Counted from the stretch's first letter, positions 15,785 to 33,319 are shown. The stretch: DNA of 64,000 nucleotides from Acidobacteriota bacterium (GCA_008363385.1 RHKY01000031.1:6522-70521); one strand, 5' to 3'. The notes: a model not told the origin generated them from the letters alone. Program-made: numbers and translations.

Positions 15785-16009
15785 TCGAACCGGTCGTCAA
15801 AGCACGGGCGGAAGCCATGCCGCCGCTCCAGGAAATGGCGAAACGGCTCGAAGTGCTTGCGGACCGCACGCCGCCACTCAATCATGGATCGCACGTCCTC
15901 TCATTGTCTTGCCTCTCCCGTCTCCCCGCCTTCATCCCTACTTGGTGGCCTCCTGCAACACGTACTCGGCTCCGGGCACCGCTCGTCGCCCCGTCCGCTG
16001 GACCGAAGA

Positions 16010-16747
16010 TCATTGCTCCGAGCTGCAGATCAGCCAAATCCCCTCTGAGGCATCGCCCGTCCACACCGATTCCAGAACGCGGACGACAGGGTACGACGCT
16101 CGACAGCGTCTTTCCCACCAGGCGGGGCTGTTGTTGTAGAAGCTCTGCAGGGTCTTCACCCATCCCTCGTCGCGCCCGCTTCGCGAGACGGGCACCATGT
16201 GAAACGAGGTACCCTTGACGACGCGCTGACACTCGCAGAGCACCCTCTCGATCCCTTCCTCGGTGAAGTGCTCCAACGACCCGATCGTGTAGGCGTAATC
16301 GAAGCTACCGTCGGGGTATGGCAGGGATGCTGCGTCGGCTACCATGAGTCGATCCCCTGCGATTCCCCGCTCCTTCGCCTTTCCGATTAGCAGATCCGAG
16401 ATGTCGCATCCGTGGACCTCGATCTCGGGGAATCGCTCGAGGAGGCTCATCGTCTTTCCGGTTCCGCACGCGATATCCAGGATCCGACCCTTTCGATCGC
16501 TCATCAGAAGCTGGATCTCCCGCCAGACGGTCTTCTCGCCCCACGTCTCCAGGATCTCGGCCATCTTGGGATCCCAGTAGACCTCGAGGTCTTGGGTGCC
16601 GGGCTGCGTGGTATTCCGATCCGGCCCCTGCTCCGTCGTTTCTCCCTTTGACCAGGACAGTCGTTTGCGAGCGGCCCGCAGCCCTCTCCACGCGATCGGC
16701 GGGCAGACCTCCCGGAGCACGTTCTTCACCATCTGCGACGCAGCCAC
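16010..16747 (-). CDS. Class I SAM-dependent methyltransferase
   Basis: ILDIACGTGKTM motif I, acidic CDISD motif II. 245 aa. Last gene of second glycan operon. Confidence 0.75.
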   Translation of the reverse strand: MAASQMVKNVLREVCPPIAWRGLRAARKRLSWSKGETTEQGPDRNTTQPGTQDLEVYWDPKMAEILETWGEKTVWREIQLLMSDRKGRILDIACGTGKTMSLLERFPEIEVHGCDISDLLIGKAKERGIAGDRLMVADAASLPYPDGSFDYAYTIGSLEHFTEEGIERVLCECQRVVKGTSFHMVPVSRSGRDEGWVKTLQSFYNNSPAWWERRCRASYPVVRVLESVWTGDASEGIWLICSSEQ

Positions 16748-16828
16748 AGCAACACACCTCCCATCACGTTCATCGAAGGTCGCCGCGCCTCGGCACCAGC
16801 GATCCCCGTATCGTCGGACCTGCTTGGA

Positions 16829-17581
16829 TCACGCCGAAGAAGATCGCCGAAGAAGGAAGCCGTGAAGACCGCCGACGTCTCGTTCCGCAATCAGCGAGTA
16901 CTCGCGGCGCCACAGCGCCTGTAGCCCGTCTCGGTTTCTCACATAGCCCGCGAACGAGCTGCGGGTACCGCGAAGTTGGCGCGCGGCAAGCGCCTTGACT
17001 TCCCGCCACCAGTACTCCACCGACAGCAGGCCGCTGGGCACGAAGAGGACGTACTCGGCCCCGGCCTGCGCGAGCCGAAAGAAGACCCGCTTCCACTCTC
17101 GATTCGAGAACGACGTCTCCACTCGGTGCAAGAGATACAGCCGCTCCGGATGGGTGGGCATTGGATCGCGAGTCAGGTCGAGGACACGGATCTCGTCACA
17201 CTCGTGGAACACCGCGGAGAGCCTCTTCCTCCAGCCGTCGCCGACATCGCTCACAGCGAGGTGGAGATCCGGGGCTTTCGACTTGAGGTTGAACTCGAGG
17301 TAGGCACCACCGACTCCGAAGGACTCGATCCCCGTCAGCCGCAGCTCCCTTACGACGGCGACGATGGCGTCGGCCCGAGCCGTGAGGTTGCCGGTCCCGT
17401 CCTTCTCGGCGCCCCCCGTGCAATGACGCAGCCACTCCTCCCGGACGGGGCTGATAGAGAAAAACGTCTCCCTTGGTTCCGTCCGAAGACCGTCCCAATC
17501 CTCGGCCGACCGCAGCGCGCCGGTCACCAGCACCGCGGAACTCCCCCCGAACGGGTAGTAGCGCCGCATCGTGAATCTCAC
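16829..17581 (-). CDS. Hypothetical protein (glycan-locus associated)
   Basis: 250-aa ORF with non-repetitive composition, co-directional and tightly packed in operon. No motif recognised with confidence. Confidence 0.35.
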   Translation of the reverse strand: MRFTMRRYYPFGGSSAVLVTGALRSAEDWDGLRTEPRETFFSISPVREEWLRHCTGGAEKDGTGNLTARADAIVAVVRELRLTGIESFGVGGAYLEFNLKSKAPDLHLAVSDVGDGWRKRLSAVFHECDEIRVLDLTRDPMPTHPERLYLLHRVETSFSNREWKRVFFRLAQAGAEYVLFVPSGLLSVEYWWREVKALAARQLRGTRSSFAGYVRNRDGLQALWRREYSLIAERDVGGLHGFLLRRSSSA

Positions 17582-17612
17582 TCAGACCGTCTTCCCATCT
17601 GCTCGTCGCGCC

Positions 17613-18380
17613 TCATTCCGGCCGCCTCGCGAGGCACAGAATGTGCCACGTGTTGGCCTCGATGCGCCGCTCTTCCTCGAACCCGGCGAGCCAGGAGACC
17701 GGAACGAGGTCGGCGCGTTCCAGGAGCACGCTCATCTCGGGCACGGAGAAGTACCGGTTCCTATGCTCTTCTCGCGTGACCTGATACCGGCCGTCGCTCG
17801 AGAGCTCGTACAGGCTGTAGCTGACGGTCCCGACCTGCTCCTCGACCTCGAGCTTTGTCTCGGCGATCCGGAGCAGCTCCGTTCCGCCCAGGTGCCACCG
17901 CCGCACGCCGACAGGTCGGTAGTGTCGGAGCATCGCCGGGGCATGCCAGAACTCGAAGACGAAGAGGCCGCCGCGCCGGAGGTGAGAGCGGACGCGTCGC
18001 AGGACCTGCTCGACCGCCTCGTTCGTCACTACGTAGCCGATCGAGTCGAACAGGCAGTAGGCCGCGTCGTATTCGTCTCCGACGCTCAGCTCCCGCATGT
18101 CCTGCACCCGGAAGTCGATCTCGAGATTCCGCTCGGCGGCCTTTGCCCGCGCGAGCGCGATCATGTCCGGGGAAGAGTCCACCGCCACGATCCGGTACCC
18201 ACGCCTCGCCAGCTCCAGGGCGTGCTCTCCGGTGCCGCACGCGAGTTCGAGGAGCCGCCGACAAGAGCCCACGCCGTGCTGCCGCAGGCAACGGTCCACG
18301 AAGCCCGCCTCTTCCGCGTACGGCTTCTCGGCGTAGATGACGTCGTACAGCGCCGCGTGTCGACCCGTGTAAGGCAGCAT
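17613..18380 (-). CDS. Class I SAM-dependent methyltransferase (sugar N-/O-methyltransferase-like)
   Basis: LLELACGTGEHALELARRGYRIVAVDSSPDM motif I/II. Resembles TylM1/DesVI-type aminosugar N-methyltransferases. Confidence 0.8.
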   Translation of the reverse strand: MLPYTGRHAALYDVIYAEKPYAEEAGFVDRCLRQHGVGSCRRLLELACGTGEHALELARRGYRIVAVDSSPDMIALARAKAAERNLEIDFRVQDMRELSVGDEYDAAYCLFDSIGYVVTNEAVEQVLRRVRSHLRRGGLFVFEFWHAPAMLRHYRPVGVRRWHLGGTELLRIAETKLEVEEQVGTVSYSLYELSSDGRYQVTREEHRNRYFSVPEMSVLLERADLVPVSWLAGFEEERRIEANTWHILCLARRPE

Positions 18381-18389
18381 GCTCGGGCC

Positions 18390-19523
18390 TCACCGCGCGG
18401 CCGAGGGCACGCCACGCCGCTTGCGGGCTTCCCCGATCGCGTCGGCCACGCGGTCGATCGAGCTCTCGGAGAGCCCCGGCGAAGAGGGTAGGTACAGCCC
18501 CGTCTCCCAGAGCCGGTCGGCCACGGGGCACGGCTCCGCCCGGAAGCCAGGCAGTCGGCGAAGACAGGGCTGCTGGTTCATCGGACAGAAGAACGTACGG
18601 GTCTCGATCCCCTCCGCGCGCAGGAAGGCGGCGAGCTCGTCACGTCCGAGCCCGAACTCCGGCTCCACGACCACGCCGTACATCCAGTAGACGTTCCTCG
18701 CCCACTCCTTCTCGACGGGCAGCCTGAGCCCGGGGATTCCCCTCAGCCGCGCCGAGTACCGACTTGCCACTGCCCGCTTGGCTTCCAGGATCTCCCCGAT
18801 CCGGCGCACCTGGCTGACGCCCATCGCGGCCTGGTACCCGGTCATGCGGAAGTTGTATCCGGCCACCTCGTGACGGAAGCGTGGCTGGGTGAAGCCGAGG
18901 TTCCGCAGCAGACGGAGGCGCTCCGCCAGAGCGTCGTCGTTCGTCACGACCATCCCGCCTTCCCCTGTCGTGACGATCTTGTTCGCGTAGAAGCTGAAGC
19001 AGCCCATGTCCCCGAAGCTGCCGGTGACGCGCCCGCGGCACGTCGCGCCGTGCGATTCCGCGCAGTCCTCGATCACCACGAGGCGGTTCCTGCGGGCGAT
19101 CTCCGTCAACCGATCCATGTCCACCGGGTGCCCGAAGAGGTGCACGGGGACGATCGCTCGCGTTCGCGAGCCGATCAGGGGCTCCACGCGGTCGAGGTCC
19201 AGGTTCCAGGTCTCCGCCTCCGAGTCCACCGGCACCGGGAGCGCACCGTTGTGGACGGCCGCGAGCGCGGTCGCGATGTTCGTGCTCGCGCTGACGAGCA
19301 CCTCGTCGCCCGGTCCGATCCCTGCCGCGGCCACCGCGAGGTGCAGCGCCGTCGTGCCGCTGCTGACGGCGACTCCGTGCCGACTGCCAACGAATGCCGC
19401 GAACGACTCCTCGAATTCGGGGATGGAACGTCCGAACGACCCCGAGATCTCGCCCCGCCTCAGCGCTTCGACGACGGCCTGGACGTCCTCCTCGGAGACG
19501 CTGGGATCGAAGACGGGGATCAT
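18390..19523 (-). CDS. DegT/DnrJ/EryC1/StrS-family PLP-dependent sugar aminotransferase
   Basis: Conserved PLP lysine region SFYANKIVTTGEGGMVVTND. ATG 19523 (MIPVFDPS...) overlaps TGA of upstream gene (ATGA). 377 aa. Confidence 0.85.
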   Translation of the reverse strand: MIPVFDPSVSEEDVQAVVEALRRGEISGSFGRSIPEFEESFAAFVGSRHGVAVSSGTTALHLAVAAAGIGPGDEVLVSASTNIATALAAVHNGALPVPVDSEAETWNLDLDRVEPLIGSRTRAIVPVHLFGHPVDMDRLTEIARRNRLVVIEDCAESHGATCRGRVTGSFGDMGCFSFYANKIVTTGEGGMVVTNDDALAERLRLLRNLGFTQPRFRHEVAGYNFRMTGYQAAMGVSQVRRIGEILEAKRAVASRYSARLRGIPGLRLPVEKEWARNVYWMYGVVVEPEFGLGRDELAAFLRAEGIETRTFFCPMNQQPCLRRLPGFRAEPCPVADRLWETGLYLPSSPGLSESSIDRVADAIGEARKRRGVPSAAR

Positions 19524-19933
19524 CTCTTGACTTCCACGAGCACCTTGTCCCGCTCCGGCCCGAGAAACGGCCCCTGCTTGACGCTGATGCACTGCATGTC
19601 CTCGATCGCCTCGATCGCGTGGACTCCGTGAATGAGGACGATCGCGTCCCCGCCCCGCATCGTCACCTCCCGGAGAAGCTCACCGTCGTCCGAGTAGAGC
19701 CGCACCGCAACGACCCCGAACTGGACCACGAACATCTGCTGCAGGTCGTCGACGGTCCGGCGGAACGGGCTGTGGAAATGCGGGGGCTCCACGAAGCCCG
19801 CGCGGTGGGCCAAGAGGCCGAACTGGAACGAGGACTCCTCCGGCGAGAAGAACGTCGTCTTCTCGACGCGGGTGTCCGCCCAGATCACCTCGGCATAGCG
19901 CACGCCTCCGTGCTCGATGACTTCGACGCTCAT
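19520..19933 (-). CDS. WxcM-like/FdtA-like cupin sugar 3,4-ketoisomerase domain protein
   Basis: 137-aa cupin: FFSPEESSFQFGLLAHRAGFVEPPHFH...GDAIVLIHGVHAIE resembles the dTDP-4-keto-6-deoxyhexose 3,4-isomerase (FdtA) fold. ATG overlaps TGA of wzt (ATGA). Confidence 0.7.
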   Translation of the reverse strand: MSVEVIEHGGVRYAEVIWADTRVEKTTFFSPEESSFQFGLLAHRAGFVEPPHFHSPFRRTVDDLQQMFVVQFGVVAVRLYSDDGELLREVTMRGGDAIVLIHGVHAIEAIEDMQCISVKQGPFLGPERDKVLVEVKR

Positions 19934-21243
19934 CGTCCTCCCTGCCTTTCTCGGCTCCCGGCCGGGACCGCTGCCTCCGACGGCGAGACGAGCTCCCCGG
20001 GACGCTCGATCCTCTCCGTCCTCCACGGGATCCGCGGCGCGAGGCGGCCCGGCGACACGTACCCCGGCATGGAACGCGTCAGGAGGCCGGAATCGTGGAC
20101 TTCCAGCGTGTATTCCAGCGGTTCCGGGAAGATGTACCGTCCTCTCGCGATCGCGGCGTTCAGCTCCAGGCGGTACCGGCGCTGCGCGAGGAGGTTCGCC
20201 GGGATCTCCGCTCGTGTCACGTACCGCCCCGCGCTCATGCGCGGGAACGCCGGCCCTTCCCCATCGTGGGTGCTCTCGACGAGGAGGATGCCCTCTTCGT
20301 CGAAGAGGCGGATGAACACGTGCAGCCCGTCGCAGTCCTGCAGCACCTCGAACTCCGTGACCAGCTCCACCGGCTCCCCGGTCACGAGCTCCCGCGGACC
20401 TCTCGAGCCCTGCGAGAGGGACGCGTCCAGGAGCCGGAACGCCGGGTCCGGAGGCAAGGCCGCCTTGAACAGCTCGACCTCCGTGGCGCCGGTTCCGGTC
20501 GATACCCCCCTCAGGTACTGCTCGACGACGGAGTCTGCCTCGCCGATCCCCTGCACCCGACCTTCGCCGAGCCAGACCGCCCTCGTGCACAGGCCTCGGA
20601 TCGCCGGCATGTTGTGCGACACGAAGACCACGGTCCGCCCTTCCCGAGATTGCTCGCCCATTCGCGCAAGGCACTTGCGCTGGAAAGTCACGTCACCGAC
20701 CGCCAGCACCTCGTCGACCACCAGGATCTCCGGATCCAGGTGCGCGGCCACCGCGAAGGCGAGGCGGACGTACATCCCGCTCGAGTACCGCTTGACGGGC
20801 GTGTCGAGGAATCGTTCCACCTCGGCGAACGACACGATCGCGTCGAAGCTCCGTCGGATCTCCGCTCGCGACATCCCGAGGATCGAGCCGTTCAGGAAGA
20901 CGTTCTCGCGCCCGGTCAGCTCCGGATGGAACCCGGTGCCGACCTCGAGGAGGGAGGCGACGCGGCCGCGGAGTCTCGCCCTGCCGCAGGTCGGCTCCGT
21001 GATCCTCGAAAGGATTTTCAGAAGCGTCGACTTTCCCGCGCCGTTCTTGCCGACGATGCCGAACGCCTCGCCGTCGGCCACCGCGAAGGAGACGTCCCGG
21101 AGCGCCCAGAACTCCGACTGCTCTTGCTGCTCGCGCTTCCGCCAGAGCGCCGCGAACGCGTCCCGCGCGGTCCTGTACCCCAGCTCCTTGACGCCACCGA
21201 GCCGGTAGCGCTTCGAGATGCCGTCGACCTCGATCGCGTTCAA
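19930..21243 (-). CDS. wzt: ABC transporter ATP-binding protein Wzt (O-antigen/teichoic-acid exporter type) with C-terminal carbohydrate-binding extension
   Basis: Walker A GKNGAGKST, signature YSSGMYVRLAFA, Walker B ILVVDE. About 190-aa extension after the NBD. Probable TTG start 21243..21241 (LNAIEVDGISKRY) overlapping TGA of wzm (TTGA). Confidence 0.8.
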   Translation of the reverse strand: MNAIEVDGISKRYRLGGVKELGYRTARDAFAALWRKREQQEQSEFWALRDVSFAVADGEAFGIVGKNGAGKSTLLKILSRITEPTCGRARLRGRVASLLEVGTGFHPELTGRENVFLNGSILGMSRAEIRRSFDAIVSFAEVERFLDTPVKRYSSGMYVRLAFAVAAHLDPEILVVDEVLAVGDVTFQRKCLARMGEQSREGRTVVFVSHNMPAIRGLCTRAVWLGEGRVQGIGEADSVVEQYLRGVSTGTGATEVELFKAALPPDPAFRLLDASLSQGSRGPRELVTGEPVELVTEFEVLQDCDGLHVFIRLFDEEGILLVESTHDGEGPAFPRMSAGRYVTRAEIPANLLAQRRYRLELNAAIARGRYIFPEPLEYTLEVHDSGLLTRSMPGYVSPGRLAPRIPWRTERIERPGELVSPSEAAVPAGSRERQGGR

Positions 21244-22073
21244 ACCAGGTCCGCGAATCGGCGCTCCATGCGCCGGAAGTAGAGCATCCCCGAGATCAGG
21301 AGGGTGACCGCCCAGGCGGCCGAGATCGCCAGCTCGGCCCACGGGAGCGGCAGCCCGAGCGTCGAAGCGCGGAAGGCCTCGACGACTCCCGTCATCGGAT
21401 TCAGCGCGACGAGGGATCGGACGCGCTCGGGCAGCGCGGACTGCGGGTAGACGACGGGAGTACCGTACATCCAGATCTGGACGACGAAGGGCACGACGAC
21501 GCGGACATCACGATACTCCACGTTCAGCGCGGCGAAGAAGAGGCCGATCCCGAGCGAGAGAGCCGCGGCAATCGCGACGACGACCGGGAGCGCTACGAGG
21601 GAGACGCCCGGGACGACCGAGAACCAGAGGGCCATGGCGCCGAGAAGGAGGCACGTGACGCCGAGGTCGACCCCGGCGACCGCCACTGCGGCCATCGGTA
21701 TCAGGACCCGAGGGAAGTACACCTTGGAGAGCAGGCTCGCGTTGCCCACCAGGCTGTTCCCCGCGGACTGCACGCTCGCGGCGAAGAAGGTCCACGGCAA
21801 CAAGCCCGAGAAGACGAACAGCGAGTACGGCATGTCACCCTGAGAGGGAATCCGGGCGATGTAGCTGAAGACGAAGGTGAAGATCGCCATGGCCACCAAC
21901 GGCTGCCCCCAGACCCAGAGCGCGCCCAGGACGGTCTGGCTGTATCGGACCTTGACGTCGCGCCAGGCGAAGATCGCCAGCAGCTCCCGATAGCGCCAGA
22001 TCTCCCCGACGTCGATCCCCACCCAGCCCGTCGAGGGCTCGATCGTCAGCGTCGGGGCCTCCACCTTCCTCAT
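21240..22073 (-). CDS. wzm: ABC-2 type polysaccharide export permease Wzm
   Basis: 277 aa from MRKVEAPTLTIEPS with six TM segments. Typical Wzm/TagG. N-extension of track ORF discarded. Confidence 0.8.
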   Translation of the reverse strand: MRKVEAPTLTIEPSTGWVGIDVGEIWRYRELLAIFAWRDVKVRYSQTVLGALWVWGQPLVAMAIFTFVFSYIARIPSQGDMPYSLFVFSGLLPWTFFAASVQSAGNSLVGNASLLSKVYFPRVLIPMAAVAVAGVDLGVTCLLLGAMALWFSVVPGVSLVALPVVVAIAAALSLGIGLFFAALNVEYRDVRVVVPFVVQIWMYGTPVVYPQSALPERVRSLVALNPMTGVVEAFRASTLGLPLPWAELAISAAWAVTLLISGMLYFRRMERRFADLV

Positions 22074-22126
22074 CCCCAGGTTCTCGCCTGTCGTCGCGTG
22101 GCCGCCGCCCGGGAGGAACCTCTGCC

Positions 22127-25100
22127 TCACGGGCGAGACGCTCCGACGTCCCGCAGCTGCCGATGCAGGATGCCCGCAGCGACCACGGGTGCGTAGCGGG
22201 ATTCGACCAGCGCTCGACCCCGCCCGCCAAGCCGGGTCCGGAGGCCGGCGTCCTTCAGGATACTGAGGACCGCCTCGCCCAGCGCAGGACCCTCGCCGTC
22301 GCACAGGAACCCCGTCTCACCCGCGAGGACGAACTCCTCCGGCCCCCCGCAGCGCGTGCTGACGACCGGAACCCCGCACGCCAGCGCCTCGAGGGCCGCT
22401 ATGCAGAGTCCCTCCTGCTCCGACGGGAGGACGAAGACGTCGAACGACTTCACGAGGCCCGGTAGGAGGTCCTCGGCTACCGCCGGGACCACGTGGACCA
22501 GGGACTCCAGTCCGAGCCGTCTCACTCGCGCGGCGGTCGAGGCTCGGAGCGGCCCGCCCACCAGCATGGCCGAGACCGAGGCTCCTGCCGCACGGCAATA
22601 CGCCAGCACGTCCACGAGGAGATCGACCCTCTTTCGCGGATCGTCGATCCGCCCGACGAATCCGATCCGCCCGTGCACCACGGCCGCCGGATCCGGTCGG
22701 AAGCGGATCGGGTCGACCGGAACCGGGAGGACGTTCCCGGGCACGGCGCCGCCGGCGAGCCGCGCGAGCCTCCCTCGCGTGTACTCGCTCAGAGGGAGGA
22801 CGGACCCCGCCTCCAGGATCTCTCTCTCGAGCCGCTCCACGAGGGGCCTGACCAGGATGGAATCGGCCGCCCGGCGCAGGGCCGAGAAGCCGAGCTCGCG
22901 GGAGCGGCGGTCGTCGCGCCACGGGGTGGCCACCCAGGCGACGAAGCGCCGCCCGCTATCCAGAAACGGCCGGGCCGCCAGACAGGTCCCAGAGGCCGCG
23001 AGGCATACGTCCGCCTCGTCGACCAACGCCGCCCAGGGCCTAGAGAGGCGATACTGGTTCGACTCGAGCTCCGGAAGCCAGGCGCCCAGCTCGTGGCCCT
23101 CGACGCCGTCGAACACCACGGTCAGCCTCGCGCCGACCGCTCCGATCCCGAGGCGGGTCGCCGTTGGCGAGAGGTAGGGATCCTCCGTGAAGGGCCGGTA
23201 CCAGGCGAGCACCGGCAAGTCGCCGGCGTCCCGGACTGTCTCCGTGGCGAACTTCGCCATCCTGGGAACGCCTCCCCCCCAGGACGGGGGAAGGGTGGAG
23301 ATCAGGACCCTCCTGGGGCGCCTGGGTCCCGGTGTCGGCACCGCCGAGGCCACGTCAGGCCGCGCCACCCGCCGTCTCTCGTCGAGTCCCAGCTCTGGCG
23401 CAAGCCGGTCCAGCACGAACCGGGCCCACCCTCGTAGCCCCCGGCCGGTATGGGCATCCCCCCGGCCTCGCACCCACTCGGCGACCGGCGGCGCGAAGCC
23501 CGTCTTCGCACGGGAGAGCACCGGCTCGGGTACGTCGGGCTCCACGGCCCGGGCCATCTCCGCCTTCGTCGGCGGGTCGGCGAGGCCAAGCGAAGCTGCG
23601 AGCCGGCGGGCAAGCTCAACGTCGACGAACGGGACGCGGATCTCGAGCGAGTGCGCCATTCCGGCCCAGTCGGCGTCCCGGAGGAGCTGGTTCCGCATGT
23701 ACCACGTCGACTCGAGCGCCGTGATACGAAGCCGGTCGGAGAGAAGGCCGGAGACCGTGCCCTCGAGGGCCGGCAGCGTGCCGAGGGCTTCCCATCCTTC
23801 CCGGACCAGGTCTGCGTCCAGGAACTCCGGCAGCTCCCACGGCATGAAGAGCCCTCGCCGCAGGAAGTACGCCCCTCCCAACGTCCCGCCGTACTCGAGA
23901 ACGCTCGCCCACTTCGGTGAGGCTGCACGGGAGGCCAGCGGAGCTACCACCCGTCGGAAGAGCCGTCCCGCGGCCGGGACCGCCGTGAACGGCGATAGCG
24001 CCCTGGCGGTACGCGGGACCTCGTAGAACGATGGATAGCCGCCGAACAGCTCGTCGCCCCCGAGTCCCGAGAGGGCTACTTTGAGGCCCAGCGACGCCGC
24101 CGCGCGGCTCACGAACCACGTGTTGACGCCGTCGATCGACGGCTGGTCCATCGCGGCAAGGATAGCGTCCAGGTCGTCGTCGAAGTCGCTCCGGGTGACC
24201 CGAACGGCCTCGTGCCGGATGCCGAGCGACGAAGCGACCTGCCGCGCGACCGGGACCTCGTCCATGGGCGTTCCTTCGTGTTCCGAGAAGCCCAGCGTGA
24301 CGGAGAGGACGTCGGCTCCGGCGTCCCGGCAGAGCCGCGCGATTGCCCTCGAGTCGAGACCCGCCGAGAGGAAGAGCCCGACCGGCACGTCCGACTCCAG
24401 GTGGTGCCGGACGCTGTCCAGGAGCGCCTCTCTCATGGGCGCGCGCTTAGCCTCGTCTCCGAGCCCGCCCCGCTGGCTCGCGACGAGGGCGTCCACGAGG
24501 TGAGCTACCCGTGCCCTTCGCGGCCCCGTGCCCTGCCGGTAGATCGCGACCTCTCCCGGAGCGAGGGCGCGAATCCCGCGGTGCAGGGTGAAGGGCTCCG
24601 GCACGTGGCCCCAGACGCAGAACCCCACCACGCCCGCAGGATCCGGAACGGCTTCCACCCCGCGCCCGGCGAGCAGGCCCCGGACCTGGGAGGCGGCACG
24701 CACGGTCTGTCCGTCGTCCGCCAGGTACAGCGGCTTGATCCCGTACGGGTCCCGCGCGAGGGCGAGCGATCGCTCGGCCTCGTCCCAGAGGGCGAGGGCG
24801 TACATCCCGCGGAGCCTTCCGAGCATGTCCGGGCCGTGCTCCGCGTAGAGGGCGAGGAGCACCTCGGTGTCCGTCCCCGTCCTGAAGACGTGGCCGCGTG
24901 ACTCGAGCTCCGCGCGCAGCGCCTTGAAGTTGTAGATCTCGCCGTTGAAGACGATCGTGAATCGACCCGTCGGGTCACGCATCGGCTGCGCGCCCCGGTC
25001 CGAAGGATCGAGGATGGCGAGGCGCCGGTGGCCCAGGGCCACGTCGCGGCGGTCGCTCTCCCAGTAGCCGTGACCGTCCGGTCCCCGGGCTGCCATCGCT

Positions 25101-25180
25101 TCCCGGATGCGCAGGGCCTCCTCCCTGTCGACGCGGGGCGCGTCAGGGTCGTAGGCGTGGATGGCGACGATTCCGCACAT
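22127..25180 (-). CDS. Fusion protein: asparagine-synthetase-family amidotransferase (N, ~610 aa) + GT4 glycosyltransferase (C, ~390 aa)
   Basis: Single 1017-aa frame. MCGIVAIH glutaminase nucleophile, SAGLDSR PP-loop, then a Pro/Arg linker and GT4 domain (RVLISTLPPSWGGGV ... EALACGVPVVSTRCGGPEEFV). Confidence 0.8.
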   Translation of the reverse strand: MCGIVAIHAYDPDAPRVDREEALRIREAMAARGPDGHGYWESDRRDVALGHRRLAILDPSDRGAQPMRDPTGRFTIVFNGEIYNFKALRAELESRGHVFRTGTDTEVLLALYAEHGPDMLGRLRGMYALALWDEAERSLALARDPYGIKPLYLADDGQTVRAASQVRGLLAGRGVEAVPDPAGVVGFCVWGHVPEPFTLHRGIRALAPGEVAIYRQGTGPRRARVAHLVDALVASQRGGLGDEAKRAPMREALLDSVRHHLESDVPVGLFLSAGLDSRAIARLCRDAGADVLSVTLGFSEHEGTPMDEVPVARQVASSLGIRHEAVRVTRSDFDDDLDAILAAMDQPSIDGVNTWFVSRAAASLGLKVALSGLGGDELFGGYPSFYEVPRTARALSPFTAVPAAGRLFRRVVAPLASRAASPKWASVLEYGGTLGGAYFLRRGLFMPWELPEFLDADLVREGWEALGTLPALEGTVSGLLSDRLRITALESTWYMRNQLLRDADWAGMAHSLEIRVPFVDVELARRLAASLGLADPPTKAEMARAVEPDVPEPVLSRAKTGFAPPVAEWVRGRGDAHTGRGLRGWARFVLDRLAPELGLDERRRVARPDVASAVPTPGPRRPRRVLISTLPPSWGGGVPRMAKFATETVRDAGDLPVLAWYRPFTEDPYLSPTATRLGIGAVGARLTVVFDGVEGHELGAWLPELESNQYRLSRPWAALVDEADVCLAASGTCLAARPFLDSGRRFVAWVATPWRDDRRSRELGFSALRRAADSILVRPLVERLEREILEAGSVLPLSEYTRGRLARLAGGAVPGNVLPVPVDPIRFRPDPAAVVHGRIGFVGRIDDPRKRVDLLVDVLAYCRAAGASVSAMLVGGPLRASTAARVRRLGLESLVHVVPAVAEDLLPGLVKSFDVFVLPSEQEGLCIAALEALACGVPVVSTRCGGPEEFVLAGETGFLCDGEGPALGEAVLSILKDAGLRTRLGGRGRALVESRYAPVVAAGILHRQLRDVGASRP

Positions 25181-25260
25181 TGCTTCAGGTCCCGAGGCGG
25201 CGCGCGGCTCGGCTGCCGGCGTGCGCCGTCGAGCGCGATCCGATGACTACCGCCGAGCCC

Positions 25261-26238
25261 TCACCGCTCCCTGGGGAGCCCGGACGGCTCCTCGGCCAGC
25301 ATGGAAAGCAGCAGCCTCCCTTTCTCCTCCTCCGGGGGTCCGACTCGGGCCAGCTCCCGGACGTGCCCCTTCCTCTTCGACGAGAACAGGACGATCCCTC
25401 CCGGGTTCACGGCAGCAGCGGCCCCAAGCAGGACGCTCGCGAGCGAAGCCGGGTCGCCTGCGTCGATCCCGAGCCGCTCCGACCAGGCCCTTCTTCGGGC
25501 CTCCTGCTTCATCGACTCCCCGAGCCTCGGGAGGGCACCCCTGATCGCACCCTGGGTGATGACGAACGATCCGGAGTAGTCGGGGCGCCGATCCGAGCAC
25601 ACCGACCACTCGAACTGGAGCACCGGAGGAAGACCAGCGCCCGCGTCGACGACGCCGTCGACGAGCCGGCGTGGGCTTCCGATCCCCCACGCTCCGATCG
25701 CCCCCTTGGACACCTGCGCCTCCAGCGCTGCCCGCAGGTCGTCTCCCAGGGCCTCCACGCCCCCTTCGTGCACGAGGAACAGGTCGATCCGATCGCAGCG
25801 GAGCTTCCGGAGGCTCGCCTCGAGCGAAGCGAGCATCGCCGGGACCGAGTACGCCGTCGACTTCGGCGGTCTCCCGACCTGAGCCACCGCGCCGGCGGCC
25901 TCCACGAGGCGCGCCTTCGCGCGAGGGAACCTCGCCACGAGCGGCCTGAGGATCCCCCGAGCGACGTCCATGGCCGCCCTCGCCCTGGGGGGCGGCAAGC
26001 CGAACTTCGACGTCACCGTCACTTCCCCGCGATGACGCGCGACCAGCTCCCCGACCAGCGCTTCCGCCTCTCCCAGCCCGTACGGCGGCGCCGTGTCGAA
26101 GTGCCGTATCCCGGCGTCGAACGCCGTCTCGAGGAGGGCCAGCGACTCCCGCCGACTCCAGCCGCCGTGCAGCCCAGAGGATCCGTAGCCGATCGCGGTC
26201 GTGCCACCCGGTCGCCCTGGGAATCCGACTTGCCTCAG
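25261..26238 (-). CDS. Aldo/keto reductase family oxidoreductase
   Basis: LRQVGFPG...GYGSSGLHGGW...LETAFDAGIRHFDTAPPYG AKR N-terminus. No ATG/GTG/TTG in frame near the conserved N-terminus. CTG 26238..26236 with GGAGGG 7 nt upstream overlaps TGA of GMC gene. Confidence 0.65.
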   Translation of the reverse strand: MRQVGFPGRPGGTTAIGYGSSGLHGGWSRRESLALLETAFDAGIRHFDTAPPYGLGEAEALVGELVARHRGEVTVTSKFGLPPPRARAAMDVARGILRPLVARFPRAKARLVEAAGAVAQVGRPPKSTAYSVPAMLASLEASLRKLRCDRIDLFLVHEGGVEALGDDLRAALEAQVSKGAIGAWGIGSPRRLVDGVVDAGAGLPPVLQFEWSVCSDRRPDYSGSFVITQGAIRGALPRLGESMKQEARRRAWSERLGIDAGDPASLASVLLGAAAAVNPGGIVLFSSKRKGHVRELARVGPPEEEKGRLLLSMLAEEPSGLPRER

Positions 26239-27824
26239 CGGATTCCCTCCGCGCAGAGATGGTCGCCGAGGCGAAGCGCAAGAGCGATCGCCGTGTGTGT
26301 CGGATTGGAGAAGCTGCCGCTCGGGAAGACGGCGCTGCTGCAGACGTAGCCGTTCGCGGTGCCAAGGATCCTGAGGGACTCGTCGACGACTCCCGGTTCG
26401 GCGCCATCCGTCATCCGGGCGGTGCCCATGTCGTGGTAGTTGTCCCATCCCTTGCCGAGCACGGCGGGGTCACGCGCGGATACGAGTCGCTCGATCCTCA
26501 CCTCGGCGAGGCCCGTGCTCTCGAAGGCCGACTTCACGCTCTCCGCGAAGGTGGCGAGCGTCTCCACCTCGGCCTGACCGAGACGCCAGTCCAGCTGGGC
26601 ACGACGCATCCCAAAGGCATCCCTGTCCTCGGAGAGGGTGACGCGGCTCTCCGCGTCGGGAGCCTGCTCGATGAACGCGAGCAACCGGAAGCCGCGGTCC
26701 GAGGGGTTGAAGGCTCGCTTGTGGACGAGGTACCGCCAGGCCTGTCTTACGATCAGCGGCCCGGAACGGATGAAGCTCCGCGAGGCCTCCGCGAGGACTT
26801 TCGCGCTCGGCCGGCCCTGCAAGACTCTCCGGGCCGCGATCCGTACCTGATGCAGCACCTGCGCGCTGATCTCCGAGTAGAACAGAACCAACCCACCCGC
26901 GTTAAGAGAGCGCGCCTCCTCCTGTCTCGCGGCGCTCAGGTAGAGCCGCGGCTGGTACTTGAACCCGCGCAGGTAGACCATGTCCATCAGCCGATGAACC
27001 GCCGCGGGATTCCGCGGCACGACGTCCGCGCACTCGAAGGTGGGGTGGTCGAGGAAATACCGACCCAGGGCATCCGATCTCCGGGCCCAGGGCGGCTCGG
27101 TGCCGTCCTCGAGAGGTTGCATCAGGAGGCGCGCCGATTCGATGCCACCGACGCAGAAGACGAAACGACGGCCCGCAATTCGGATGCCGCGACCCTCGAG
27201 CGTTCTGGCTTTCGCCGACACGATGCGGTCCCCGGAGCAGGCGAGCGCCGTGACCGTCGCATGCAAGATGCAGCGAAGGCGGGACGAGCGCTCGACCTCG
27301 GCACCGTGCAGGCGAGCGAAGTCCGGCTGAGGGCACCATCTCGAGAGATGGGCCCGCAGGTCGGGTCCGAACTCGGGCGCGGACAGACCGATGGCTGACC
27401 AGACACCCTCGTCGTCCTTGACGCAGCCGCCTAGCCCCTCGTACTCGAGCGCCGTCCTGTAGTAGGGCTCGAGGTCGTCGTACGTGATGGGCCAGCCGCT
27501 GCTCCGGATCCAGTCCCGTCTCGCGAAGTCGATCGGGCCGAAGGGCAGGATCTGTCCGCCCCATTGGGTCGAGGTGCCGCCGAAGGCGCGGAATCGCCCG
27601 AGGTTGATCCCGTTGTGGTTCCGGCCCACGTTCTTGGACCGATAGAGATCCTGCAGCTCCGGCTCGACGGTGGGCCCGCCCGACTCGAGCATCACGACGT
27701 CCAGGCCTCGGCGAGACAACGCGAGCGAAAGCGTGATGCCCACCGGGCCGGCGCCCACGACGCAGACGTCCGTTTCCAGAAGCTCCGGCAGGCCGTCGGT
27801 ATGGAGATCAGCGAGCATCGTCAA
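26235..27824 (-). CDS. GMC-family FAD-dependent oxidoreductase
   Basis: DVCVVGAGPVGITLSLAL dinucleotide-binding motif. C-terminal GMC_oxred_C-like region (GTARM, active-site His region). 529 aa. Confidence 0.75.
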   Translation of the reverse strand: MTMLADLHTDGLPELLETDVCVVGAGPVGITLSLALSRRGLDVVMLESGGPTVEPELQDLYRSKNVGRNHNGINLGRFRAFGGTSTQWGGQILPFGPIDFARRDWIRSSGWPITYDDLEPYYRTALEYEGLGGCVKDDEGVWSAIGLSAPEFGPDLRAHLSRWCPQPDFARLHGAEVERSSRLRCILHATVTALACSGDRIVSAKARTLEGRGIRIAGRRFVFCVGGIESARLLMQPLEDGTEPPWARRSDALGRYFLDHPTFECADVVPRNPAAVHRLMDMVYLRGFKYQPRLYLSAARQEEARSLNAGGLVLFYSEISAQVLHQVRIAARRVLQGRPSAKVLAEASRSFIRSGPLIVRQAWRYLVHKRAFNPSDRGFRLLAFIEQAPDAESRVTLSEDRDAFGMRRAQLDWRLGQAEVETLATFAESVKSAFESTGLAEVRIERLVSARDPAVLGKGWDNYHDMGTARMTDGAEPGVVDESLRILGTANGYVCSSAVFPSGSFSNPTHTAIALALRLGDHLCAEGIR

Positions 27825-27908
27825 GACCCCGACTCCTCGCGGTCGGCTTGCACGGACTCACGCGAGGCAGACGGACCGGAGGGCTCGGGCAGCGGCGGGC
27901 CCGGGCGC

Positions 27909-29843
27909 TCACGCGGATGATGGAATATCCGTGGGATCGTGCCGCTCCGAGCCGAGCCGCAGCCCGGCACGCACCCGGACGTCGGCGCCGGTTCCGGCCG
28001 CCTCTGCCTCCCGCTCCGCGATATCCCCTTCGAACGAGACCCGGAAACGGAGGAAGGCGACGTCGAGCTCCTGGCACATCTCCTCGACCGCGGTGACTCT
28101 CTCGCCGGGGATCTTCGGCGACGTCACCACCAGGCCCCTGACGCCATGCGACTTGAAGAGGCGCGGCAGGTCTCCGAGGGTGCCGAGGACGGCCAGGCCG
28201 TTCAGGGTGCGGCCCACCTTCTCAGGGTCGTCATCGACGAATCCCGCAGGGTGGTAGAGCGCGTCCGCGCGGGCCCGCAGCTCCCGGAGGGCTGCGGAGC
28301 CGCGCCGTCCGGCTCCGTAGAGGAGGACGGGGATGCCGTGGTCGACGGTGCGGGCGCGCCAGTGGGCGAGGAGCCGGTACGAGGCTCGCGTGCCGTTCGT
28401 GAGGAGGAGCAGGAGGAGCGCGTAGACGAGGAAGAAGCTCGCCGGAGCTTCGGTGCGGCCCACGACGCCGTCGACGACCCCCGAAGCGAGAGCCGAGGCC
28501 GCGACCGCCGCCGACGGGCGAAGCAGGTCTTCCACGCTGGCATGGCGCCAGCGGCCACGGTAGAGGCCGAAGAGCCAGAATGTCAGGAAGGTGACGACGG
28601 GCAGGACCGCCGCCAGCTCGAGGAAGAGCGGGCGGTGCCGCACGAGCCCCCAGTCGTCCCACTTCAGGCCGATCGCGCCGTAGGCCGCAGCCACGACGAG
28701 CGACAGGTCGACGAAGACGACGAAGAAGCCCCTCTTCAGGACGGGCGTGTCGTACAGCCGGAGCATCGTGCCGCGCTTGAGGAAGGCCAGCTCCTCGTAT
28801 CCCAGCCGGCCGATCCCGACGGCCGCGGCGAAGAGGAGGGCCAGGAGGAAAAGGGCTGCGTCGCGCGAAGAGACGAAGAGCGAGGCGAAGCCGACGAGTC
28901 CCAGGAGAAGGCCCGTCCCGTGGAGGAGAAGCACCGCGCGCCGATGCGTGAGGCCCATCGCGAGGAGGCGGTGGTGTATGTGGCGCTTGTCCGCTTCCAT
29001 GATCCCGGACGGCGAGGTCGCATCCATGAGGCGGAGGGCTCGCCGGACGATCGAGAGGAGCGCATCCGCGAGCGGGACGCCCAGGATCACGACCGGGACG
29101 AGGACGGCGAGACCCGCCGAGAGGATCGCCCCCCCTTGCAGGCATAGGCACGCGAGGAGGAAGCCGACGGAGCAGGAGCCGCTATCGCCCAGGAAGATCG
29201 ACGCCGGATGGAGGTTGTACGGAAGGAAGCCGGCGAGGGCGCCCAGGAGGATGAGCGACCCCGTGGCGTACTCCCAGCGGCCCGCGAGGATGAAAACACC
29301 GGAAAGGCTGGCGGCGGAGATCAGGGCCAAGCCGGCCGAGAGCCCGTCGAGGCCGTCGATCAGGTTGAACGCGTTGGTGACGGCGACGATCCAGAGAATC
29401 GAGAGCGGGATCGCGAAGAGGCCCAGCTCGATCCCGTACCCGAAGACGTGCACGTGGCTGCCCAGCCGGATCCCAAGGGCGACTGCCGCGCTCGCGCCGA
29501 GTACGTGCGCGGCGAGCTTGACGAGCGCGCGCCGTGGGCGCACGTCGTCCCATACCGAGATCGCGAAGACGGGGAGAAGGCCGATTCCGATTGCGGCGAA
29601 GGTAGAGAGCTTCGGCGGCTTCGGGACCGGGAGGACGCCAAAGGTGACGAGGAGGGCAGTGGAAAGGAGGGCGCCGACGACGGCCACGCCGCCGAGGCGC
29701 GGGATCGGGCTCTTGTGGACTTTACGTTCGTCGGGGACGTCCACCGCGCCGATCGCCGCCGCCATCCGCTTGGCAAGCGGTGTCAAGGCCAGCGCGAGCG
29801 CCGCCGCGATCCCTGCAGGAAGGAGCAGGAGGAGGACCTTCAC
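27909..29843 (-). CDS. Polyprenyl-phosphate N-acetylhexosamine-1-phosphate transferase (WecA/MraY family) fused to C-terminal CoA-binding-like (PglF/WbpM N-terminal type) domain
   Basis: VTNAFNLIDGLDGL and IFLGDSGS MraY/WecA motifs in an 11-TM domain. C-terminal PVLLYGAGRRGSAALRE...GFVDDDPEKVG...GLAVLG. Start placed at GTG 29843 (VKVLLLLLPAGIAAAL). Track ORF start 29972 adds an Arg-rich leader. Confidence 0.65.
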   Translation of the reverse strand: MKVLLLLLPAGIAAALALALTPLAKRMAAAIGAVDVPDERKVHKSPIPRLGGVAVVGALLSTALLVTFGVLPVPKPPKLSTFAAIGIGLLPVFAISVWDDVRPRRALVKLAAHVLGASAAVALGIRLGSHVHVFGYGIELGLFAIPLSILWIVAVTNAFNLIDGLDGLSAGLALISAASLSGVFILAGRWEYATGSLILLGALAGFLPYNLHPASIFLGDSGSCSVGFLLACLCLQGGAILSAGLAVLVPVVILGVPLADALLSIVRRALRLMDATSPSGIMEADKRHIHHRLLAMGLTHRRAVLLLHGTGLLLGLVGFASLFVSSRDAALFLLALLFAAAVGIGRLGYEELAFLKRGTMLRLYDTPVLKRGFFVVFVDLSLVVAAAYGAIGLKWDDWGLVRHRPLFLELAAVLPVVTFLTFWLFGLYRGRWRHASVEDLLRPSAAVAASALASGVVDGVVGRTEAPASFFLVYALLLLLLTNGTRASYRLLAHWRARTVDHGIPVLLYGAGRRGSAALRELRARADALYHPAGFVDDDPEKVGRTLNGLAVLGTLGDLPRLFKSHGVRGLVVTSPKIPGERVTAVEEMCQELDVAFLRFRVSFEGDIAEREAEAAGTGADVRVRAGLRLGSERHDPTDIPSSA

Positions 29844-29895
29844 GATCGTGATCCGATCACGAGCGATTCGGGGGGATTGTCCGTAGGCAGCAAGG

Positions 29896-30909
29896 TTAGT
29901 CCCGCGGGACCGGGGACGCAAGCGCGGGAGGTGCCGGAGGCGGTTCCGCCGGCTGCGGGCTTGCGAGGGCATTCCAGGTGCGCCGGAGTCCTTCTGGCAA
30001 CTCGGTTGCCAGGACGACTCCGAGTACCACCTCGAGCAGCACCGCGGACGCCGAGGAATGCCGGATGTCCCCAGCGCGCGGTGGCAGGTGCTCGACCGCG
30101 GAGGCGGAACCGCTCACGTGGAGGATGGAGTTCGCGAGGACCCGAACGGTCGTCGAGGAGCTTCTGCCAGAGTTCAATGGTTGCCCGTAGGCTGCGGGTG
30201 GGGCCGAGGCTGCCGCGAGGATTACCCCGACGACGTCCGCGACGTACGTGAAGTCCCGCGCCTGCTCGCCGTCGCCGTATATGGTCAGCGGGCGGCCGTC
30301 GCGGGCGGCAGCGAGGAACTTCGGGATGACGGCGGCGTAGGGGCCTTCTGGGTTCTGCCGCGGCCCGTAGACGTTGAAGAAACGGAGGCTGACGACCGGG
30401 AGGCCGAAGACGCGCCAGTAGAGCTCGGCCAGCTCCTCGCCCATTCGCTTCGAGAGGGCGTACGGGGAGAGGGGGCGGCCCTCTTCCCCTTCGACCTTCG
30501 GAAGTTTCTCGCTGTCACCGTAGACGCTGGAGGAGGAGGCGAAGACGACGGACCTTACCGCCGCATCCCGGCATGCGGTGAAGACGTTCGCGGTGCCGCG
30601 GGCGTTCACGTCGAGAGTCGTGGCGGGGTCCTTCATCGACCGGGGGACCGAGCCGATCGCCGCGAGATGGAAGACGTGGGCGGCTCCGTCGATCGCGGCG
30701 CGGCAGGCGTCCAGGTCCCGGATGTCTCCCTCGACGAAGCGGATCCGATCCCGGACGCCGGCCAGGTTCTCCAGCGTGCCGGAGAAGAGGTTGTCGAGGA
30801 CGGTGACCTCTGCCCAGCGGGCAACGAGGGCATCGACGAGGTGCGAGCCGATGAAGCCAGCGCCGCCGGTGACGGTGACGCGCTTGCCGCGAAAGTCGGG
30901 CTCGATCAT
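29896..30909 (-). CDS. SDR-family NAD-dependent sugar epimerase/dehydratase
   Basis: VTGGAGFIGSH, YALSK catalytic pair. ATG 30909 overlaps TGA of the dehydrogenase gene (ATGA). 337 aa. Confidence 0.8.
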   Translation of the reverse strand: MIEPDFRGKRVTVTGGAGFIGSHLVDALVARWAEVTVLDNLFSGTLENLAGVRDRIRFVEGDIRDLDACRAAIDGAAHVFHLAAIGSVPRSMKDPATTLDVNARGTANVFTACRDAAVRSVVFASSSSVYGDSEKLPKVEGEEGRPLSPYALSKRMGEELAELYWRVFGLPVVSLRFFNVYGPRQNPEGPYAAVIPKFLAAARDGRPLTIYGDGEQARDFTYVADVVGVILAAASAPPAAYGQPLNSGRSSSTTVRVLANSILHVSGSASAVEHLPPRAGDIRHSSASAVLLEVVLGVVLATELPEGLRRTWNALASPQPAEPPPAPPALASPVPRD

Positions 30910-32936: not shown

Positions 32937-32965
32937 GCTTTTCTGTTGCGAGAGCGGCGCGGAGA

Positions 32966-33319
32966 CTATGGCGACTCGGGTGTCGGCGCCGGCGGTGACA
33001 GTGGCTCGAGGACAGCCACCAGCGGCGGGATGTCCTCGCGGACCGTCTTCCACACGCCCTCGAGGTCGACGGAGTCGTACCCGTGGATCAGGATGTCGCG
33101 GGAGCCCGCGATCCGGCGCCAGGGAACCTCGGGGTGGGCTTCTCGGTATTCGGCAGAAAGTCGCTTCACGGCTTCCCCGAGCACGAGCAGCTGGTGCAGA
33201 ACCGCGGACTGGGTCTTCTCGTCCGCCTTGAACGAAGGCAGGTCGAGCTCACCCAGGAAGGCCGCAGCGTTGCGGGCCGCGCGAAGCGCGTCGAGGACGG
33301 ACGCTTCATCGCGCTGCAT
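32966..33319 (-). CDS. hepT: HepT-like HEPN toxin (DUF86)
   Basis: R-x4-HxY motif (RDILIHGY). Downstream partner of the MNT gene. Confidence 0.75.

Follow-up and report, generated by a model that had tools for sequence, protein, structure and literature searches.

Uronamide sugars occur in the O-antigens and protein-linked glycans of pathogens such as Pseudomonas aeruginosa O6, Escherichia coli O121, Francisella tularensis, Bordetella and Porphyromonas gingivalis. The AsnB homologues WbpS, WbqG and PGN_1234 are genetically required for the conversion of an N-acetylhexosamine (HexNAc)-uronic acid to a uronamide (PMC7468200, PMC6025236), and WbpS has been assigned to the family TIGR03108 (eps_aminotran_1) (PMC7468200). 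Whether such amidotransferases act on a nucleotide sugar or on the assembled glycan is stated to be unknown (PMC7468200, PMC2615507). The AsnB-type enzyme LtsA acts on lipid-linked intermediates (PMC7920481), and the Bordetella wbm locus, which directs an ABC-transporter-dependent O-antigen with uronamides, encodes three amidotransferase paralogues, WbmC, WbmI and WbmZ (PMC2615507). In a wbpS mutant of Helicobacter pullorum, a HexNAc-HexNAcA disaccharide accumulates and is not extended, a phenotype that fits either order of amidation and transfer. Here we analyse a gene from an uncultured Acidobacteriota bacterium that joins an AsnB-type amidotransferase to a GT4 glycosyltransferase (GT) in one polypeptide, together with the 64,000-nucleotide stretch of DNA around it (GCA_008363385.1 RHKY01000031.1:6522-70521; hereafter the window).

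WbpS (P. aeruginosa O6), WbqG (E. coli O121) and PGN_1234 (P. gingivalis) are two-domain AsnB proteins with an N-terminal Cys, as is the corresponding half of the fusion, and the UDP-HexNAc dehydrogenase (WbpO/WbpA) and epimerase (WbpP) of WbpS-type loci are matched by a dehydrogenase and an epimerase in the window. However, WbpS-type enzymes are stand-alone proteins of ~600 amino acids (aa), whereas the window enzyme is covalently joined to a GT4; its likeness to WbpS comes from a family model, at a score below the TIGR03108 cut-off, and from locus content rather than from direct alignment. The several glutamine-dependent amidotransferase paralogues of the Bordetella wbm locus resemble the two AsnB copies of the window, although their sugar is L-GalNAc3NAcA and a GT fusion is not reported for WbmC, WbmI or WbmZ (PMC2615507). 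The LtsA/AsnB1-type meso-diaminopimelate amidotransferases, which are AsnB/PurF-type enzymes, amidate a carboxylate of an envelope precursor and so provide a precedent for amidation after transfer; they act on a peptide stem instead of a sugar, however, and carry no GT. No description of an AsnB-GT fusion was found in the literature searched, which is no proof of its absence from the literature. Each of the two activities is already known, as is their joint presence in glycan loci, and the fused architecture is common in databases. What is new here is that the GT half is found on its own as well, with a co-oriented AsnB gene directly upstream in all three cases examined.

Two complete enzymes in one reading frame

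The whole gene lies at 22127..25180 on the minus strand and encodes 1017 aa plus a stop codon, as delineated by its open reading frame (ORF), a frame plot, Pfam and NCBIfam matches and database copies of the protein. A sequence-only reading of the window had given this same frame without its strand. The start codon is ATG and the first residues are MCGIV. The window has a G+C content of 70.8% and many spurious long ORFs; in the fusion frame, the G+C fractions at the three codon positions are 0.76/0.53/0.87, and a plot of third-position GC (GC3) reveals one unbroken coding frame gene-wide. Along the chain, an AsnB-type glutamine amidotransferase (aa 1-600) is followed by a linker (aa ~601-622) and a GT4 (aa 623-1017). 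Pfam detects GATase_6/7 (aa 34-170, E 2e-44), Asn_synthase (aa 250-579, E 6e-55) and Glycos_transf_1 (aa 838-989, E 3e-26), and NCBIfam assigns the N-terminal part to the asparagine-synthase superfamily and the C-terminal part to GT4 enzymes.

The amidotransferase half comprises a class II (Ntn) glutamine amidotransferase domain (aa 1-200; 24581..25180, minus strand), delineated by the GATase_6/7 matches and alignment columns, and an ATP-dependent PP-loop synthetase domain of the Asn_synthase type (aa ~240-600; 23381..24463, minus strand), delineated by Pfam, alignment and Foldseek. Statements on residue conservation are based on an alignment of 51 full-length fusions. In the glutaminase site, R52, N79-G80-E81 and D104 are invariant, and the nucleophile, Cys2, stands right behind the initiator Met in an M1-C2-G3 start that is at least 90% conserved. 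The five invariant residues presumably correspond to R49, N74, G75, E76 and D98 of E. coli AsnB (1CT9). The PP-loop, SAGLDS(R) at aa 272-278, has Ala at the second position of SGGxDS. Together with the S-G-x-G-x-D-E-x-F-G-G-Y motif it lines up cleanly with E. coli AsnB, whose S346-G347, D351-E352 and Y357 align with S371-G372, D376-E377 and Y382 of the fusion; these residues, S272-x-G274-x-D276-S277 and K559 are invariant or nearly so. The AMP-binding residues of the synthetase, on which the sequence-only reading had staked its assignment, are thus present, and invariant in the 51 fusions.

Glu348 is catalytic in AsnB. In the fusion its position is taken by Leu373 (codon 24062-24064, minus strand), with a conservation of at least 90% among the fused proteins, whereas AsnB2, the stand-alone paralogue encoded in the same window, has Asp there; a Leu here fits an enzyme other than asparagine synthetase. 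Leu or Asp at this position may be a marker that splits sugar-amidating AsnB paralogues from true asparagine synthetases. A Foldseek search of the PDB with the N-terminal 600 aa returned TsnB9 and E. coli AsnB, at target template-modelling (TM) scores of 0.74-0.76. The fusion shares with both E. coli AsnB (1CT9) and TsnB9 (7YLZ) the fold (TM ~0.75), the glutaminase residues, the PP-loop and the AMP-site motif, but differs from them in Leu for AsnB Glu348, in SAGLDS for SGGLDS, in its glycan operon and in its C-terminal GT4. The best specific NCBIfam model is TIGR03108, for the fused domain and for AsnB2 alike.

It is very improbable that the AsnB half is a housekeeping asparagine synthetase joined to a GT by chance. 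The domain does clear the threshold of TIGR01536, a generic 'asparagine synthase' model (357.9 bits vs 267.1), and the fused homologues are all labelled merely 'asparagine synthase' in databases. Yet it falls well short of the AsnB equivalog NF006949 (236.8 bits vs 499) and carries Leu in place of Glu348, the gene sits within a ~33-kb glycan operon, and pairing or fusion with a GT4 persists across phyla. By family models and residue content, the fused AsnB half is not a housekeeping AsnB.

The GT half is a complete GT4 domain (GT-B fold, retaining type; aa 623-1017; 22130..23314, minus strand), as supported by Pfam, the alignment, AlphaFold2 and Foldseek. G636-G637, K850 and the EX7E motif (E923-x7-E931) are invariant, and PF00534 (Glycos_transf_1) is matched at 92.4 bits, where the cut-off is 26.4. 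Pfam finds nothing in aa 623-837, the N-terminal Rossmann half of this domain. An incomplete GT, as might be read from a Pfam hit that covers the C-terminal half only, is ruled out by structure prediction, by fold comparison and by homologues that stand alone: AlphaFold2 predicts a full two-Rossmann GT-B fold over aa 623-1017 at a predicted local distance difference test score (pLDDT) of ~90, and the C-terminal 400 aa match full-length GT4 enzymes in the PDB (TM 0.72-0.79; ~410-440 columns aligned at TM 0.75-0.79). BshA, MshA, PimB', HepE and the mycobacterial methylmannose polysaccharide mannosyltransferase (7qsg) have the GT-B fold, EX7E, the conserved Lys and the N-terminal Gly-Gly loop in common with the fused GT. 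Their identity to it is just 15-22% and, unlike the fusion, none is joined to an amidotransferase; the donor and acceptor cannot be inferred from them. The TviE and TuaC models give weak matches only (29-35 bits).

Between the two enzymes, the inter-domain linker (aa ~601-622; 23315..23380, minus strand) is marked by low pLDDT, low conservation and richness in R, P, A, S and G; the sequence DERRRVARPDVASAVPTPGPRRPRR spans aa ~598-622. The AlphaFold2 model, built on the alignment of fusions, has a mean pLDDT of 90.2 and a whole-model predicted TM score (pTM) of 0.62, and its pLDDT falls below 50 at aa 602-619, as in a disordered linker. This is also the least conserved stretch of the 51 fusions (column conservation 0.12, gaps 55%), and the spacing from the conserved W585 to G636 varies among them from 25 to 67 residues. 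As modelled, the linker is a flexible, variable tether. Being disordered and variable, it lends no support to substrate channelling or to a fixed reaction order, and the earlier suggestion that the amidated sugar is channelled directly into transfer finds no backing here.

The single ORF is genuine and both of its halves are complete. A frameshift that merges two genes would be conceivable, since split versions with 4-bp overlaps exist in which a one-base error could have this effect and since the source data are metagenome assemblies; one half might also have decayed and become inactive. We nonetheless regard either possibility as extremely improbable. The identical 1017-aa protein is found in two NCBI records from acidobacterial metagenome-assembled genomes (MAGs), KAA0253157.1 and MCE7956317.1, and in Logan assemblies, on four contigs all told, the longest of 98.6 kb. 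Fused orthologues at 81%, 72% and 71% identity, from independent metagenomes, are likewise single ORFs that keep the same linker region, and the coding signature is unbroken, which together rule out a sequencing or assembly artefact; no frameshift was found in the linker, where the sequence-only reading had asked for a check. Decay of one half is countered by the invariance of active-site residues in both halves across the 51 fusions. The description of a complete amidotransferase joined to a full GT4 in the sequence-only reading is borne out by Pfam, AlphaFold2, Foldseek and stand-alone homologues, which agree.

Split pairs and repeated fusion

Among 5.8 billion clustered proteins, our search for fused homologues found over 100 clusters, 958-1083 aa in length, with an Asn_synthase plus Glycos_transf_1 architecture, at identities from 81% down to ~41%. 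They belong to Acidobacteriota, Beta- and Gammaproteobacteria, Nitrospirota, Gemmatimonadota and Schekmanbacteria, and the taxa with the fusion include Caenimonas, Ramlibacter, Gemmatimonadales, Vicinamibacterales and Nitrospiraceae. When the C-terminal 407 aa (aa 611-1017) were used as the query alone, more than 1000 proteins matched, and the best 120 of these were nearly all stand-alone GT4s (374-436 aa, 40-54% identity, 87-97% query coverage).

The three stand-alone GT4 genes whose context we examined, in loci L085 (Thermoanaerobaculaceae), L086 (a gammaproteobacterium) and L087, all have a co-oriented AsnB gene directly upstream. Their GTs are orthologous to the fused one (44-53% identity by tblastn). 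The gap between the two genes is +170 bp as annotated in L085, +2 bp in L086 and -4 bp, an overlap, in L087. In such pairs the two activities reside on two polypeptides whose stop and start codons overlap or abut, whereas the window has them on one chain; the epimerase/wzm/wzt neighbourhood of the L086 pair is the same as that around the fusion. The annotated 170-bp gap of L085 (7831-8000) codes for the conserved N-terminus of its GT (RRILISTLPLTGGGVPVM), so that the public call of this protein (P0203, from MLDFV) is truncated and the AsnB and GT genes are much nearer to each other than annotated.

The domain boundary can be placed by comparison with a split homologue, as the sequence-only reading had proposed: the fused GT begins, at 'RRVLISTLPPSWGGGVPRM', exactly where the stand-alone P0121 begins ('LTDVLLSTLPPDWGGGVPRM'). 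P0121 starts with a TTG that shares bases with the stop codon of AsnB, and in the window lineage the disordered linker stands in place of the AsnB C-terminal tail. L001, a Thermoanaerobaculia MAG with synteny to the window, has a stand-alone AsnB orthologue (64% identity) whose TGA shares bases with the GTG that starts a different GT4 (a GTGA overlap). Fused and stand-alone GT domains are intermingled in a neighbour-joining tree, with many switches from one form to the other, and the clade of the window GT (with P0001, P0003, P0004 and P0005) is sister to the split P0121. A further 53 fusions have a different GT4 subfamily behind a similar AsnB domain. A BLAST proxy for GTs flanking AsnB found 17 downstream and 13 upstream among 84 AsnB ORFs in 80 loci, figures that are a weak lower bound because only the GTs of the window served as probes. 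A scan of genome contigs yielded mostly generic AsnB paralogues of at most 40% identity and no fused ORFs, and only L001 was useful.

The adjacency of the split pairs and the interleaving of fused and split forms indicate a functionally coupled pair that has been repeatedly fused and split, and we conclude that AsnB and GT4 almost certainly work together. The architecture is widespread, and the fusion in the window is no singular event.

The glycan operon and homologous loci

Positions 1..33053 of the window form one minus-strand operon with many 4-bp overlaps. In the order of transcription, it begins with an intein-containing dehydrogenase, a TviC-like epimerase and a WecA-like transferase fusion, followed by a GMC oxidoreductase, an aldo-keto reductase, the AsnB-GT4 fusion, Wzm and Wzt. 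After Wzt come a 137-aa protein of unknown function, a LegC/PseC-like aminotransferase, methyltransferases and further unknowns, then a GT4, a GT2, a LegB-like short-chain dehydrogenase/reductase (SDR) and AsnB2 with its GT2. The operon ends with a GT2, a GT4, a methyltransferase-GT2 fusion, a GT4, a WaaL/Wzy_C-like protein, an O-acyltransferase and a last GT4. The gene set of an ABC-transporter-dependent O-polysaccharide pathway is therefore present (Wzm, Wzt, a WecA-type initiator, cytoplasmic GTs and a WaaL-like ligase), and the glycan locus with a sugar-nucleotide dehydrogenase that had been predicted from sequence is confirmed. An exosortase/PEP-CTERM exopolysaccharide context, at which the names of TIGR03108 and TIGR03088 hint, was rejected: the locus is of the Wzm/Wzt type, and no exosortase or PEP-CTERM genes were found among the window ORFs scanned.

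Wzm, an ABC-2 permease (21240..22130, minus strand), has a GTG start (22130-22128) that overlaps the TGA of the fusion (22129-22127). Wzt, the ABC ATPase (19930..21243, minus strand), carries a C-terminal carbohydrate-binding domain of the Wzt_C type according to Pfam and a profile match. In the window Wzt the Pfam match is sub-threshold (E 4.7e-4), but Pfam detects the domain in five of six orthologues, and its profile matches the carbohydrate-binding domain of Aquifex Wzt at ~1e-7.

At the head of the operon, the longest ORF at 30906..33053 (minus strand) encodes, by Pfam and NCBIfam, a nucleotide-sugar (UDP-HexNAc-type) 6-dehydrogenase with an intein, which is the presumed source of the uronic acid. 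The sequence-only reading had placed a UDP-sugar dehydrogenase at 30906..32936; the start at 32936 (M40) is plausible, and the intein had been overlooked. The enzyme scores 212-254 bits against the WecC, TviB and archaeal UDP-ManNAc dehydrogenase models, which is below their equivalog cut-offs, and lower still against UDP-glucose dehydrogenase models (AglM 158.6, TuaD 109.5 and PRK15057 21.3 bits). It thus groups with UDP-HexNAc enzymes, which leads us to expect a HexNAc-uronamide rather than a plain hexuronamide. Its 237-aa mini-intein (31407-32117, minus strand; Cys313 to His-Asn549) is inserted right before the catalytic Cys, at 'GGH|C-IPLDP', with C550 as the +1 residue; Pfam reports Intein_splicing alone, with no endonuclease domain, and the dehydrogenase orthologues of L001 (exteins 73% and 68% identical) and L085 have no intein.

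The next gene encodes an SDR epimerase (29896..30909, minus strand), which among NCBIfam models is closest to TviC (UDP-GlcNAcA C4-epimerase), at a score under the curated threshold. It is followed by a WecA-like polyprenyl-phosphate HexNAc-1-phosphate transferase joined to a WbaP-N-terminal/CoA_binding_3 region (27909..29843, minus strand), the presumed initiating enzyme. This unusual 640-650-aa protein combines a WecA/MraY-type Glycos_transf_4 domain with the non-catalytic N-part of a WbaP-type enzyme at its C-terminus (CoA_binding_3; TIGR03025 2-219), and the same architecture recurs upstream of fusions in L081 (786-2744) and L084 (7969-9891).

The second AsnB-like gene that had been reported at 9647..11497 was found there on the minus strand; it encodes AsnB2, a stand-alone paralogue of 616 aa by Pfam and NCBIfam, which is 36% identical to the fused AsnB half and scores 519.6 bits against TIGR03108, short of the cut-off of 816.9. 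A GT2 glycosyltransferase gene (8639..9643, minus strand) starts 4 bp downstream of the AsnB2 stop, so each amidotransferase of the locus seems to be paired with its own glycosyltransferase. The closest 120 relatives of AsnB2 are all stand-alone, with no AsnB-GT2 fusion among them. An AsnB-GT2 pair, with a 4-bp overlap, is also found in the syntenic Caenimonas locus (L082, 21209-23042).

Other features of the window include a further fusion in the same operon, of a class I methyltransferase and a GT2 (4688-6496, minus strand, 602 aa). GC3 is 0.84-0.93 in the glycan operon (1-33053) and 0.94-0.99 in the flanking housekeeping genes (36885-63908), as would fit either horizontal acquisition or a weaker codon bias in the locus. 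Nucleotidyltransferase/HEPN toxin-antitoxin-like pairs (33306-36223 and 46242-47074, minus strand; families NTP_transf_2, NTase_sub_bind and HepT-like) lie directly upstream of the operon, and similar pairs flank the fusion of L083. A few kb upstream of the operon, a NodU/CmcH-type carbamoyltransferase gene adjoins an SxtJ-family gene (40735-43249, minus strand); a role in glycan carbamoylation is possible.

The AsnB-GT4 module, fused or split, lies beside wzm/wzt in 8 of 13 contexts. The Caenimonas aquaedulcis locus (L082, 51% identity) is syntenic with the window, in the order epimerase, epimerase, fusion, Wzm, Wzt, methyltransferase, GTs and AsnB followed by GT2. Shorter arrangements are epimerase, dehydrogenase, epimerase, fusion, methyltransferase and Wzm (L088); epimerase, fusion, Wzm and Wzt (L089); Wzm, fusion and Wzt (L090); and fusion, epimerase, Wzm and Wzt (L091). 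The closest relative, L081 (81% identity), keeps the upstream epimerase (79%) and initiating transferase (81%) and has WbpB-, WbpD- and WbpE-like genes downstream; wzm/wzt are not beside its fusion. In L084 the initiating transferase immediately precedes the fusion and a GFO_IDH_MocA gene of the WbpB type is nearby, and in L083 (Schekmanbacteria) WbpA-, WbpE-, WbpB- and WbpD-like genes lie ~9 kb from the fusion. The WbpB/D/E-type genes of L081 and L083 are those of a di-N-acetyl uronic acid. A dehydrogenase is found within 10 kb of the module in five contexts (the window, L001, L083, L085 and L088), immediately upstream of the AsnB and GT pair in the case of L085; with the Wbp-type genes of L081 and L084, uronic-acid genes are present in 7 of the 13. 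Between loci, the carbohydrate-binding domains of Wzt are only 14-22% identical, against 42-51% for AsnB-GT4 over its full length; by best high-scoring segment pair, identities in the same loci are 45-57% for Wzt and 38-52% for Wzm. In three Caenimonas-type loci, a lasso-peptide-like cluster adjoins the fusion operon (L082 414-7863, L088 199-5173, L089 1-8438); it encodes a second AsnB-family cyclase (614-707 aa), a PqqD protein, an NTP_transf_5 protein and, in L082 only, a transglutaminase-core protein.

A candidate role in uronamide formation

Taken together, the dehydrogenase, the TviC/WbpP-like epimerase, AsnB and GT4 make a HexNAc-uronamide the most likely product. With a probability of about 0.6, we propose that the fusion is a bifunctional enzyme, a WbpS-like amidotransferase with a dedicated GT4, acting in a Wzm/Wzt-dependent, O-antigen-like pathway; we infer its substrate, its uronamide product and where in the glycan the residue sits, as well as the sequence of the two reactions. 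The enzyme would have arisen by fusion of a conserved, translationally coupled pair, a WbpS-like AsnB followed by a retaining GT4. Its glutaminase domain would hydrolyse Gln through the N-terminal Cys and free ammonia, while the PP-loop domain would adenylate the C6 carboxylate of a HexNAc-uronic acid, probably N-acetylgalactosaminuronic acid (GalNAcA) or N-acetylglucosaminuronic acid (GlcNAcA), supplied by the dehydrogenase and TviC-like epimerase of the operon. Attack of ammonia on the adenylate would yield the primary amide. The GT4 would add the same residue, in alpha-linkage, onto the undecaprenyl-pyrophosphate-linked glycan begun by the WecA-like transferase, with the order, amidate-then-transfer or transfer-then-amidate, left open. 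Most probably, this residue is an element that is conserved and not specific to a serotype, for instance an adaptor at the reducing end.

The WbpS-type role and the uronamide product had both been part of the sequence-only reading. The former is reasonable in the light of the WbpS, WbqG and PGN_1234 genetics and of the TviC/WbpP-like epimerase that adjoins the dehydrogenase, even though the TIGR03108 cut-off is missed. The latter stands as a HexNAc-uronamide but not as the plain hexuronamide proposed, the dehydrogenase being of the WecC/TviB type. That the nucleotide sugar is amidated before its transfer was an assumption; the literature states the substrate stage to be unknown (PMC7468200, PMC2615507), and LtsA sets a precedent for the other order (PMC7920481).

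Several observations weigh against our proposal. The fused domain reaches just 319.5 bits against TIGR03108, the family to which WbpS has been assigned, where the curated cut-off is 816.9. Given Leu373 at the Glu348 position, the adenylation and amidation chemistry may differ from that of canonical AsnB. No dehydrogenase was found in the 8-10 kb read on each side of the module in L082, L086, L089, L090 and L091, and the grounds for the adaptor role are solely where the genes lie and that the module is conserved while the carbohydrate-binding domain of Wzt diverges.

The conserved Leu373 and the five loci without a neighbouring dehydrogenase would also fit amidation of a carboxylate other than that of a uronic acid, for example in a nonulosonic acid, in Kdo or in a pyruvyl or lactyl group, or formation of an amide or ring other than a primary uronamide. 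The best PDB relative, TsnB9, is a hydroxyamidotransferase that uses a non-ammonia nucleophile, and LegB- and LegC/PseC-like genes are present in the operon. We consider this unlikely, because the fully conserved glutaminase site points to ammonia as the nucleophile, no nonulosonic-acid synthase or CMP-activating gene was seen among the operon ORFs scanned, and dehydrogenase or Wbp-type genes accompany the module in more than half of the contexts, including the pair in L085. The residue might, on the other hand, be a cap at the non-reducing terminus, which stops the chain from growing and which the carbohydrate-binding domain of Wzt reads for export. Cap-adding enzymes are encoded beside wzm/wzt in E. 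coli O9a and Klebsiella O12, and here the module is frequently found in that position, even between wzm and wzt in L090, with a Wzt that has a Wzt_C-type domain. A domain that reads a conserved cap should itself be conserved, however, and the Wzt domains diverge while the module does not, which argues against such a cap and favours a conserved step. The closest homologue, L081, lacks adjoining wzm/wzt and yet keeps the epimerase and initiating-transferase block, so the cap appears decidedly unlikely, whereas the adaptor also fits the place of the module beside the initiating transferase in the closest relatives.

Within the proposed role of the fusion as a uronamide-forming enzyme, one specific order of reactions would have wider consequences. 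By analogy with LtsA acting on lipid II, the GT4 might place the HexNAc-uronic acid on the undecaprenyl-pyrophosphate primer at the membrane, and the tethered AsnB might then amidate the added residue while it is lipid-linked. This is a tentative suggestion that we hold to be rather unlikely; if true, a conserved uronamide adaptor would underlie the Wzm/Wzt-dependent pathway of many phyla, and WbpS-type enzymes in general would act on lipid-linked glycans rather than on nucleotide sugars, overturning the default assumption for O-antigens.

The repeated fusion and fission of this AsnB subfamily with a particular GT4 constitutes Rosetta-stone evidence for a physical coupling of amidation to one specific glycosyl transfer. 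Hundreds of database entries named 'asparagine synthase (glutamine-hydrolyzing)' are mis-described bifunctional glycan enzymes, and the fusion offers a tractable, single-polypeptide system in which the order of amidation and transfer can be tested.

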